Source of the DNA: Escherichia coli
Lineage (GTDB): Bacteria; Pseudomonadota; Gammaproteobacteria; Enterobacterales; Enterobacteriaceae
Assembly: GCF_024700885.2 (NCBI RefSeq)
Contig: NZ_CP117016.1
DNA: 64,000 nucleotides
Strand: one strand, 5' to 3'
The translations under genes and the position numbers were made by a program. Of this stretch, positions 1 through 5,251 are shown piece after piece. Under the pieces are notes generated by a model. It saw nothing but the letters and a program-made list of their open reading frames with translations. It did not search any database and was not told where the DNA came from. Numbering within the stretch: the stretch's first letter is position 1; every line of letters begins with the position of its first letter.

Positions 1-256
1 GCATAGTGAAAACCAAAGTAAAGGTGTGCATTATGCAAAATCACAGCGTCTCTTAGAAATTAATCATGCGCACTTGCATTTAATGGAATTATTGGATGAA
101 GGGAAGAAACACAATATTTTTAAGGCAGATAGCGACCCATTGCAGGTGAATATTAATATTGCTGCGCTTGGGGGATATTATTTGATCAACCAGCATACGC
201 TTGGCCTGGTTTATCCAGTGCGCCGTAAAACCCCGTCCTTCAGGGCGGGGATATAA
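1..256 (+). CDS. 3' portion of a regulator-like gene entering from the window edge (possibly ytfA-like); last ~10 codons are encoded by the IS left-end hairpin
   Basis: Frame is open from position 2 with no upstream stop; ORF track lists 26..256; stop at 254-256 lies just after the hairpin at 231-250. Family assignment is a guess from the translated fragment. Confidence 0.35.
231..250. repeat. IS200/IS605 left-end subterminal imperfect palindrome (CCCCGTCC-TTCA-GGGCGGGG)
   Basis: 8-bp stem with one T-G mismatch and TTCA loop, read directly from sequence. Confidence 0.6.
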
Positions 257-271
257 GGCGCGGTTTTCCAC

Positions 272-703
272 CTAACCAGGTGTTTGCTGTTGTTCAATGT
301 ATTGACGGATGGCGGATATTGGCGCACCTCCGCAGCTACTGGCAAAATAGCCAGGACTCCACAAAACGCCTTTGTAGTAATACCTGACTGCAATATCTGG
401 TCGATCTCGTCGCAGTAACCTACTCGATACGCCTTTGAGGCTGTTTACCAGACTGGATATCGCCAGTTTGGGAGGATAGTTAATTAACAAATGGACGTGA
501 TCTGGTTCGCCATCCATTTCAACCAGTTCAGCTTCAAAATCAGCACATACCTTTGAAAAGTAAGTGCGTAGTTTTTCTTTCGCGTCATGGTCAAAAATCT
601 GGCGTCGGTATTTGGTGACAAAGACCAGGTGAACATGCATCAGGAAAACACAATGCTTTCCACGCCGGATATCGGTTTCTTTTTTCACAGACCAAAGTAT
701 CAT
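272..703 (-). CDS. tnpA: IS200-like Y1 (HUH) transposase TnpA
   Basis: 143-aa ORF with HVH motif (DHVHLLINYPP), KYRR motif and C-terminal catalytic-type Tyr (IRQYIEQQ); size typical of IS200 TnpA. Confidence 0.85.
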   Translation of the reverse strand: MILWSVKKETDIRRGKHCVFLMHVHLVFVTKYRRQIFDHDAKEKLRTYFSKVCADFEAELVEMDGEPDHVHLLINYPPKLAISSLVNSLKGVSSRLLRRDRPDIAVRYYYKGVLWSPGYFASSCGGAPISAIRQYIEQQQTPG

Positions 704-710
704 TTGACCT

Positions 711-1919
711 GTGAAACGATTACAGGCATTTAAATTCCAGTTAAGACCAGGTGGTCAACAGGAGTGTGAAATGAGGCGCTTCGCAGGCGCATGTCGTTTC
801 GTTTTCAATCGTGCTCTGGCGCTTCAGAATGAGAATCATGAGGCCGGTAATAAATACATCCCTTACGGGAAAATGGCTTCCTGGTTGGTTGAGTGGAAAA
901 ATGCCACTGAAACGCAATGGCTTAAAGATTCTCCCTCACAGCCATTGCAACAGTCACTGAAAGACCTTGAGCGGGCTTACAAAAACTTCTTCCGGAAGCG
1001 GGCTGCTTTTCCCCGATTCAAAAAGCGGGGACAGAATGATGCATTCCGCTACCCGCAGGGCGTTAAGCTCGATCAGGAAAACAGCCGTATTTTTCTGCCG
1101 AAACTTGGCTGGATGCGCTACCGGAACAGCCGTCAGGTCACGGGTGTTGTAAAAAATGTCACTGTCAGCCAGTCCTGCGGTAAGTGGTACATCAGTATTC
1201 AGACAGAAAGTGAAGTATCAACTCCGGATCACCCTTCAGCATCAATGGTCGGGCTGGATGCTGGCGTGGCTAAACTCGCCACGCTGTCAGATGGCACAGT
1301 CTTTGAGCCTGTAAACAGTTTTCAGAAAAACCAGAAGACGCTGGCGAGACTTCAGCGACAGTTAAGCCGCAAGGTCAAATTCAGCAACAACTGGCAGAAG
1401 CAGAAACGCAAAATACAGCGACTGCATTCCTGTATCGCAAATATCCGCAGGGACTACCTTCACAAAGTCACAACGACCGTCAGCAAAAACCACGCAATGA
1501 TAGTCATTGAGGATTTGAAGGTCAGCAACATGTCAAAGTCAGCAGCGGGTACGGTCAGCCAGCCGGGGCGCAATGTCCGGGCAAAATCAGGTTTAAACCG
1601 TTCGATACTGGATCAGGGCTGGTATGAAATGCGCCGCCAGCTTGAGTACAAGCAGCTCTGGCGTGGCGGTCAGGTGCTTGCTGTTCCGCCAGCGTACACA
1701 AGCCAGCGTTGCGCGTGCTGTGGTCATACAGCGAAAGAAAATCGCCTGTCACAAAGTAAATTCAGATGCCAGGCATGTGGATATACAGCGAACGCTGATG
1801 TAAATGGCGCTCGTAACATTTTAGCGGCGGGGCACGCCGTTCTTGCCTGTGGAGAGATGGTGCAGTCAGGCCGCTCGTTGAAGCAGGAACCCACCGAAAT
1901 GATTCAGGCGACAGCCTGA
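711..1919 (+). CDS. tnpB: TnpB (OrfB) RNA-guided endonuclease homolog, IS605/IS1341 type
   Basis: 402-aa ORF with RuvC-I (GLDAGV), RuvC-II (IVIEDLKV), Cys-rich zinc finger (CACCGH...CQACGY) and RuvC-III ([10 protein letters not shown]) motifs, all apparently intact. Confidence 0.9.
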
Positions 1920-1975
1920 ACGTAGCAGGGATCCACGTCCTTCAGGGCGTGGAGGATGTCAACATATCAGTATGG
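1780..1975 (+). ncRNA. Predicted omega-RNA (reRNA) scaffold plus flank-derived guide for TnpB (inferred, not demonstrated)
   Basis: By analogy with characterised TnpB systems, where the guide RNA derives from the tnpB 3' end and right end; the RE hairpin at 1932-1953 lies in this span. Confidence 0.25.
1932..1953. repeat. IS200/IS605 right-end subterminal imperfect palindrome (TCCACGTCC-TTCA-GGGCGTGGA)
   Basis: 9-bp stem with one T-G mismatch at the same relative position as in the left-end hairpin, same TTCA loop. Confidence 0.6.
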
Positions 1976-2053
1976 TTTCCCCCCAGGCACTGGAAGCCAG
2001 ACGTAAGGTCATCAAAGAGACGCTCCTTAGCTGGCTTTTGGTTGATTCTTCAT

Positions 2054-2728
2054 CTACCGCGCACGAATAAAACTGCCATCCGGCTGGCGGGTAAACAGGA
2101 CCTGTTGATTATTCCCCGTATCAATGGTTAAGCCCGTCACCACGCCGCTGGCGTTCTGGCGGATTTTCACCATCTGCCCGTTTTGCAAATTACTCAGCGG
2201 CTTACCCGCGCCTTCTACCTGCGCCATTGCATAGACATCGGTAGCGGGCAGTCCGTGGTCGCGGAACAGCTGCGCCATCGTTTTACCGGGTTCGACACGA
2301 TAGGAGCGCCATTGATTATCAATTCCGCTATCTGGCTGGAATGGTTGCGTTTGGGTGGTTTGCGGCTGCTCTTCTGGCTGGCCTTCCTGTATAGGTTCTG
2401 GAGCGAGCGGAGCCACCTGATCAGGATCATTTTGTGGCGTGACTAATTGCGCCCGCAGCTGTTCTTCTGTCGGTGGTTGTGATTGCGACTGAATATCTAA
2501 CTGTGCTTCACGCGTCACCACCGGCGCGTTGGGCGTATCATCAGATGGAAGCAGAAATCCGACCACCAATACAATGGCGGCAATAATGATCCCCCGACGA
2601 TGCATCTGCGGCAGCGGGTCCATGAAGCGAAAATTGTCCGGCGCGTGCCAGACTTTCTCCAGGGTTGGTTTTAGTTCAAAGCGCCCGGGCATGGTTTCCT
2701 CCTGCTCCGCGTCTTGTTCCTCAATCAT
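2054..2728 (-). CDS. ytfB: YtfB-like OapA-domain membrane protein (cell-division associated)
   Basis: 224-aa ORF with N-terminal TM segment, Pro/Gln-rich linker and C-terminal OapA-like domain; position next to fklB matches the E. coli gene order. Confidence 0.8.
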
Positions 2729-3530: not shown

Positions 3531-3838
3531 GCAGCGCATTCTGTTCCCCTCGAGCCAGAGGGGAGCAGACATTCAGCAATAAACCCTTCAGTTTGCCAAA
3601 CGGCGCTATTTTGTGTTGCAAAGACCCCGTAAGCGTGTATTTTTGTGAGCTGTTTCGCGTTATCACCGTGATATGACACTCACTTTAAACATAAAATTAA
3701 CATTAGATCTAAATCTTAGTATTCATCCCGCGTATTGTTACCTAATATCGATGAGTCCCGATACAGATTCGTCGTATCATAGATTGACTAAAGGCCGTAG
3801 AGCCTGAACAACACAGACAGGTACAGGAAGAAAAAAAC

Positions 3839-5251
3839 ATGGTAGATCAGGTAAAAGTCGTTGCCGATGATCAGGCTCCGGCTGAACAGTCGCTACGGCG
3901 CAATCTCACAAACCGACATATTCAGCTTATTGCCATTGGCGGTGCCATTGGTACGGGGTTGTTTATGGGGTCCGGCAAAACGATTAGCCTTGCCGGGCCG
4001 TCGATCATTTTCGTTTATATGATCATCGGTTTTATGCTCTTTTTCGTGATGCGGGCAATGGGGGAATTGCTGCTTTCGAATCTGGAATACAAATCTTTTA
4101 GTGACTTCGCTTCCGATTTACTCGGGCCGTGGGCAGGATATTTCACCGGCTGGACTTACTGGTTCTGCTGGGTTGTAACCGGTATGGCAGACGTGGTGGC
4201 GATCACGGCTTATGCTCAGTTCTGGTTCCCCGAGCTCTCCGACTGGGTCGCCTCGCTGGCGGTGATAGTGCTGCTGCTGACGCTCAACCTCGCCACCGTG
4301 AAAATGTTCGGTGAGATGGAGTTCTGGTTTGCGATGATCAAAATCGTCGCCATTGTGTCGCTGATTGTCGTCGGCCTGGTCATGGTGGCGATGCACTTTC
4401 AGTCACCGACCGGTGTGGAAGCGTCATTCGCGCATTTGTGGAATGATGGCGGCTGGTTCCCGAAAGGTTTAAGTGGCTTCTTTGCCGGATTCCAGATAGC
4501 GGTTTTCGCTTTCGTAGGGATTGAGCTGGTAGGTACAACAGCTGCGGAAACCAAAGATCCAGAGAAATCACTGCCACGCGCGATTAACTCCATTCCGATC
4601 CGTATCATTATGTTCTACGTCTTCGCGCTGATTGTGATTATGTCCGTGACGCCGTGGAGTTCGGTAGTCCCGGAGAAAAGCCCGTTCGTTGAACTGTTCG
4701 TGTTGGTAGGTTTGCCTGCGGCTGCCAGCGTGATCAACTTTGTGGTGCTGACCTCTGCGGCGTCTTCCGCTAACAGCGGTGTCTTCTCTACCAGCCGTAT
4801 GCTGTTTGGTCTGGCGCAGGAAGGTGTGGCACCGAAAGCGTTCGCTAAACTCTCTAAGCGCGCAGTACCCGCGAAAGGGCTGACCTTCTCTTGTATCTGT
4901 CTGCTCGGCGGCGTGGTGATGTTGTATGTGAATCCCAGCGTGATTGGCGCGTTCACGATGATTACAACCGTTTCCGCGATTCTGTTTATGTTCGTCTGGA
5001 CGATTATCCTTTGCTCGTACCTGGTGTATCGCAAACAGCGTCCGCACCTGCATGAGAAATCAATCTACAAGATGCCGCTCGGCAAGCTGATGTGCTGGGT
5101 ATGTATGGCATTCTTTGTGTTCGTGGTCGTGCTGCTGACACTGGAAGATGATACCCGCCAGGCGCTGCTGGTTACCCCGCTGTGGTTTATCGCTCTGGGG
5201 CTGGGCTGGTTGTTTATTGGTAAGAAGCGGGCTGCTGAACTGCGGAAATAA
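3839..5251 (+). CDS. cycA: D-serine/D-alanine/glycine APC-family transporter CycA
   Basis: 470-aa polytopic membrane ORF recognised as CycA. Confidence 0.95.
   Translation: MVDQVKVVADDQAPAEQSLRRNLTNRHIQLIAIGGAIGTGLFMGSGKTISLAGPSIIFVYMIIGFMLFFVMRAMGELLLSNLEYKSFSDFASDLLGPWAGYFTGWTYWFCWVVTGMADVVAITAYAQFWFPELSDWVASLAVIVLLLTLNLATVKMFGEMEFWFAMIKIVAIVSLIVVGLVMVAMHFQSPTGVEASFAHLWNDGGWFPKGLSGFFAGFQIAVFAFVGIELVGTTAAETKDPEKSLPRAINSIPIRIIMFYVFALIVIMSVTPWSSVVPEKSPFVELFVLVGLPAAASVINFVVLTSAASSANSGVFSTSRMLFGLAQEGVAPKAFAKLSKRAVPAKGLTFSCICLLGGVVMLYVNPSVIGAFTMITTVSAILFMFVWTIILCSYLVYRKQRPHLHEKSIYKMPLGKLMCWVCMAFFVFVVVLLTLEDDTRQALLVTPLWFIALGLGWLFIGKKRAAELRK

Follow-up and report, generated by a model that had tools for sequence, protein, structure and literature searches.

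At the left edge of a 64,000-nucleotide stretch of Escherichia coli DNA (hereafter the window), a plus-strand reading frame enters from outside, and the question that it raises is which gene this frame belonged to, where its last codons come from, and whether an insertion sequence (IS) put an end to a working regulator. The sequence-only reading had proposed that the frame runs straight through the left-end hairpin of an IS to a stop at 254-256, that its last 10-15 or so codons are IS-derived, and that the insertion probably replaced the native C-terminus of a host gene, possibly a ytfA-like one. The answer that we favor, with a probability of about 95%, is that IS609 inserted 3′ of TTAT into an already dead ytfA remnant, and that the resulting fusion tail ends at a fortuitous TAA.

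Translation confirmed the course of the frame, which gives 84 residues from base 2 to its stop and crosses the left-end hairpin before reaching the TAA. The IS boundary falls between positions 214 and 215, and the IS-derived share of the frame, put earlier at roughly 10-15 codons, is exactly 13 codons plus the stop. The features of the locus and the basis for each are collected in Table 1.

Table 1. Features at the left edge of the window (window coordinates; +, strand shown; -, complementary strand)
Feature	Positions	Strand	Description and basis
ytfA pseudogene remnant	1-214	+	Middle of a TetR/AcrR regulator; Pfam TetR_C_29; aligns to K-12 ytfA and WP_015674817.1
Chimeric ORF	2-256	+	Frame 2, codons from base 2; open at the window edge; stop TAA at 254-256
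TTAT target tetranucleotide	211-214	+	Directly 5′ of the IS left end; left flank at five independent IS609 sites
IS609 (IS200/IS605 family)	215-1962	+ (top strand)	1748 bp, no target duplication; copies elsewhere, junction alignment, empty site, RefSeq name
IS-derived end of chimeric ORF	215-256	+	13 codons (215-253) and TAA; translation
Left-end subterminal hairpin	231-250	+	CCCCGTCC-TTCA-GGGCGGGG; 8-bp stem including a T-G position, TTCA loop
tnpA, Y1 (HUH) transposase	272-703	-	143 aa, intact; Pfam Y1_Tnp E = 2e-43, full-length match; RefSeq WP_000604902.1
tnpB / insQ, RNA-guided endonuclease family	711-1919	+	402 aa, intact; Pfam domains; RefSeq WP_001468889.1
Right-end subterminal hairpin	1933-1952	+	CCACGTCC-TTCA-GGGCGTGG
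TCAA, right cleavage site	1959-1962	+	Final four IS bases; all copies end GGATGTCAA, then unrelated flank
Displaced native ytfA 3′ end	1963-2070	+	35 codons (HISMVSPQ...STAHE) and stop; RefSeq TetR/AcrR fragment missing N-terminus
ytfB (cell division protein)	2054-2692	-	Convergent neighbor, intact; RefSeq, 3554-4192 of the strain 1190 locus (L001)

The element carries the features of the IS200/IS605 family, i.e., a Y1 TnpA, a TnpB, imperfect subterminal hairpins at both ends in place of terminal inverted repeats, and insertion 3′ of a tetranucleotide without duplication, with the protein families observed directly in Pfam searches that matched tnpB to HTH_OrfB_IS605, OrfB_IS605, and Cas12f1-like_TNB, all above cut-offs. 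Its left and right hairpin cores share one orientation and differ by 2 mismatches in 20 positions. Folded as single-stranded DNA, the 66-nt stretch at 205-270 that contains the left hairpin reached -16.8 kcal/mol (z = -4.4 against dinucleotide shuffles), and the right-hairpin stretch gave z = -2.5 against shuffles. The junctions were read directly from other copies: megablast aligned IS609 copies elsewhere in E. coli (ydcL/ydcO, yedK, near yidH, and yoaG/yeaQ) to window positions 210/211 through 1962/1965, and an alignment of five independent sites gave ttat followed by CC(A/G)GTGCGCC at the left junction and, at the right, GGATGTCAA with unrelated sequence after it. Ends at 216 or 1965 were considered and rejected, as only 215-1962 leaves an empty site without an indel and the flanks at the other sites diverge immediately after TCAA. 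The copy is 97.9% identical at the nucleotide level to that of O157:H7, where RefSeq labels the tnpA product “IS200/IS605-like element IS609 family transposase,” and the name IS609, based on the annotation in RefSeq and on a nucleotide identity of 97-98% across the entire element with copies annotated IS609, is probably the appropriate one.

These recurrences also bear on a reading without any insertion at this point, in which the host gene natively ends at 254-256 and the hairpin belongs to the host as a terminator or a REP-like element. Though a GC-rich hairpin near a stop codon does resemble a terminator in the raw sequence, the hairpin, with the sequence around it from 215 onward, is found again at unrelated loci joined to tnpA and tnpB, and IS-lacking genomes have a different C-terminus at this gene; we consider the reading refuted and give it no weight at all.

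The native end can be followed by removing the element in silico. Deletion of 215-1962 directly restored a continuous ytfA frame matching K-12 ytfA and the 215-aa protein WP_015674817.1, and the excised window reads GGTTTATCATATCAGTATGG against GGTTTATCACATCAGTATGG in the IS-lacking K-12 MG1655 and FDAARGOS_497, a difference of one synonymous SNP in a His codon (CAT/CAC) that itself varies among IS-bearing alleles (CAC in O157:H7 and MS10858). In K-12 MG1655 b4205 and in WP_015674817.1, ...GLVY is followed by a native end in (H/R)E and a stop, not by the 13 IS-derived residues, and a search of these two IS-lacking references (K-12 MG1655 b4205 and FDAARGOS_497 WP_015674817.1) for an uninterrupted homologue with the 13-codon tail, i.e., one with the same C-terminal residues and no IS, returned none. 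A short ORF at 1972-2070, in a frame open from 1963, is the other half of the split ytfA, and this displaced end overlaps the 3′ end of ytfB by 17 bp. Hence, the proposed replacement of the native C-terminus stands insofar as a chimeric end now occupies its place, but the native end was displaced 1748 bp downstream and not deleted.

The suspicion of a ytfA-like host gene was borne out, with Pfam TetR_C_29 and the K-12 annotation both identifying ytfA of the TetR/AcrR family. The window fragment matched only TetR_C_29, the C-terminal ligand and dimerization domain of TetR proteins (E = 1.2e-13), and the match is partial (profile positions 28-109 of 119, 51.7 bits), its end reaching into the IS-derived tail. 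The IS breaks this domain at ...GLVY, with the remainder beyond the right end at 1963-2070. By comparison, an intact 215-aa allele has TetR_N at residues 19-61 and TetR_C_29 at residues 83-201. Window positions 1-2100 are 100% identical to E. coli strain 1190 by megablast, and that strain extends the view upstream: homology to the intact allele begins at codon 83 (L001, position 1423), codons 1-82 are missing together with the DNA-binding TetR_N helix-turn-helix (HTH), and DNA adjoining yjfZ stands in their place. The ytfA remnant thus delimited starts 77 bp upstream of the window, and the historical K-12 ytfA ORF starts at a GTG 2 bp upstream of it. RefSeq lists, in order, a TetR/AcrR fragment lacking N- and C-termini, tnpA, insQ, a TetR/AcrR fragment lacking the N-terminus, and ytfB in strain 1190.

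Two structures were seen upstream of ytfA. In K-12, O157:H7, and strain 1190, yjfZ (DUF2686) abuts the truncated gene, while in the other (L002) an intact TetR gene lies beside genes for a 3-ketoacyl-ACP reductase and a sugar phosphate isomerase/epimerase. K-12 ytfA (b4205) has the same truncation breakpoint by yjfZ and the same frame as the window allele, and its C-terminal 35 codons are alike bar two residues; it differs in having the empty site, whereas in the window allele IS609 splits the gene, and there are in addition a 3-bp in-frame deletion and further amino-acid changes. The deletion lies at 86-91 (MESLL to MELL, with loss of a Ser), and the nonsynonymous differences from K-12 comprise Q to H, P to A, I to S, W to R, and D to G. 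Taken as sequence differences, the deletion and substitutions are consistent with neutral decay of the remnant.

Whether the IS struck a working gene was addressed in a collection of 5426 complete E. coli genomes, using megablast and junction probes. The IS609 left junction was counted in 1744 of the 5426 genomes, a recurrence showing that it is not a chance feature, and a combined probe that requires the truncation junction as well as the IS junction was likewise found in 1744/5426. An uninterrupted insertion site was present in 3247/5426 genomes. Since both junction probes gave 1744, the IS occurs only on an already truncated ytfA background, and by parsimony from these population counts the truncation preceded the insertion.

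These counts weigh against the idea that a functional TetR-family regulator lost its activity when IS609 replaced its C-terminus, and that regulation in the strain was affected. That idea draws on the intact 215-aa TetR/AcrR gene that many E. coli have at this locus (3143/5426 genomes carry its N-terminal half) and on the position of the IS inside the TetR_C_29 domain. However, strain 1190, identical to the window, is without codons 1-82, the probe for truncation plus IS picked out the very 1744 genomes found with the IS junction on its own, and K-12 has the same truncation without the IS and a ytfA annotated as a pseudogene. We rejected the knock-out of an intact regulator on the combined-junction probe (1744 = 1744) and regard it as extremely improbable. 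Our preferred reading remains an insertion into a gene that was already dead.

The tail itself differs among alleles of this one insertion. In the ytfA::IS609 alleles of O157:H7, WCHEC005237, and MS10858 (L004, L005, and L006), positions 254-256 are TAC instead of the TAA of the window, and the fusion frame, here antisense to tnpA, extends to 68 IS-derived residues. In contrast to these three sampled ytfA-site alleles, IS609 copies outside ytfA have the TAA. Given this TAA/TAC difference, and tails of 13 or 68 residues, the chimeric tail is not conserved even between alleles of one insertion. A separate insertion was observed in E. coli JNE170426 (L010:1858-2046), where IS609 entered yoaG (DUF1869) after ...RSY (TTAT); the product is an annotated 62-aa CDS (WP_000513743.1) ending in the identical 13-aa IS-derived tail, and the native yoaG continuation (DTENEHDV...) stands directly past the IS right end. 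The identical 13 residues on YoaG, with TAT again in frame, argue that the tail is a mechanical consequence of the left-end sequence and not a selected feature.

The same YoaG case, an independent insertion annotated as a CDS, is what could be cited for the chimeric ORF as an expressed and selected product, or for the IS left end as a provider of functional tails or tags to host proteins. Against this, the tail has 13 aa here and 68 aa in three other ytfA::IS609 alleles, its sequence is dictated by a transposase-binding hairpin, the frame shared at two sites is a 1-in-3 chance, and the remnant to which it is joined has a 3-bp deletion and several nonsynonymous changes relative to K-12; we find this reading scarcely credible. 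We infer instead that the chimeric ORF is a by-product with no expected function, arising as the fusion tail of IS609 in a ytfA remnant.

The sequence of events may be reconstructed as follows. An older rearrangement near yjfZ would have removed ytfA codons 1-82, including the TetR HTH, and IS609 would then have entered the remnant directly 3′ of TTAT by single-strand “peel and paste,” leaving no target duplication. Since the TAT of the target also serves, in frame, as the Tyr codon of ...GLVY, the ytfA frame stays open across the left junction; it passes the left-end hairpin and meets a fortuitous TAA after 13 codons, and the original final 35 codons now sit just past the IS right end. For the chemistry of transposition, we infer from IS608 and ISDra2 that TnpA handles the top strand as single-stranded DNA in both excision and integration, recognizing the subterminal hairpins, and by the same analogy cleavage would fall after TTAT at the left and after TCAA at the right. 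A positive GC skew throughout the window places the IS top strand (the plus strand of the window) on the lagging-strand template. A lagging-strand template bias for the top strand is usual in the IS200/IS605 family.

For TnpB/InsQ, the expected omega-RNA would come from the 3′ end of tnpB together with the IS right end, and the neighboring ytfA fragment would serve as its guide. An Rfam scan of positions 1-2800 returned only sub-threshold matches (HgcC, 24.6 bits; RAGATH-18, 29.5 bits; sot0042, 17.6 bits), and since these scores are below the gathering thresholds we claim no omega-RNA family. The sub-threshold matches span 1792-1975 (+), a stretch that takes in the 3′ end of tnpB as well as the right-end hairpin and is where an omega-RNA would be expected. 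More speculatively, the IS609 left end might be a recurrent “tail donor” that adds the 13 residues to a host protein wherever TTAT puts TAT in frame (as in ytfA and yoaG), with fusions perhaps expressed and of some consequence to the host, and, separately, the TnpB guide might be the displaced ytfA 3′ fragment CATATCAGTATGGTTT following TTAT as the TAM (target-adjacent motif), so that a precisely excised site would be cut again; we hold this to be quite unlikely. If true, re-cutting of the precisely excised ytfA site by TnpB could explain the persistence of the insertion in 1744 genomes.

Set beside known systems, the element is a familiar one. The E. coli IS609 copy in K-12 next to ydcO (insQ/ydcM) has in common with it the divergent tnpA(-)/tnpB(+) layout, the hairpins, the TTAT flank, and the TCAA terminus, and relative to IS609 copies elsewhere only the location (inside ytfA, not beside ydcO) and a few SNPs differ, e.g., A and not G at 217, and TAA and not TAC at 254-256 in comparison with other ytfA-site copies. 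The window copy also has an intact tnpA, in contrast to the pseudogene of many other IS609 copies. Of eight other sampled copies, five (L005, L006, L007, L008, and L009) have a tnpA annotated as a pseudogene, owing to truncation, a frameshift, or an internal stop; four of these five have a tnpB annotated as intact, the exception being L006, where it is frameshifted. The mechanistic paradigm is provided by Helicobacter pylori IS608 and IS605, which have a Y1 HUH transposase and imperfect subterminal hairpins, insert without duplication on the 3′ side of a fixed tetranucleotide, and end in TCAA at the right, with tnpA and tnpB divergent in IS605. As far as sequence comparison reveals, the window IS609 resembles them in its Y1 transposase, its hairpins, the lack of duplication, and its TCAA terminus, and IS605 in its divergent genes, but its target is TTAT where that of IS608 is TTAC.

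Literature searches on IS609, ytfA, InsQ, and TTAT turned up no dedicated account of the ytfA::IS609 insertion. The insertion is nonetheless already known from annotation, with RefSeq recording both TetR fragments that flank IS609 as parts of a split TetR/AcrR pseudogene, and the allele is widespread; this is an ordinary IS609 copy at a common chromosomal site, within the known behavior of its family, and its significance beyond correct annotation is little. For annotation, the ORF at 2-256 should be labeled as the 5′ fragment of a split pseudogene and not as a protein-coding gene. For the family, ytfA::IS609 is a clear natural case of an IS200/IS605 element entering 3′ of TTAT and leaving no target duplication, and within E. 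coli it serves as a stable lineage marker that always occurs on the truncated ytfA adjoining yjfZ.
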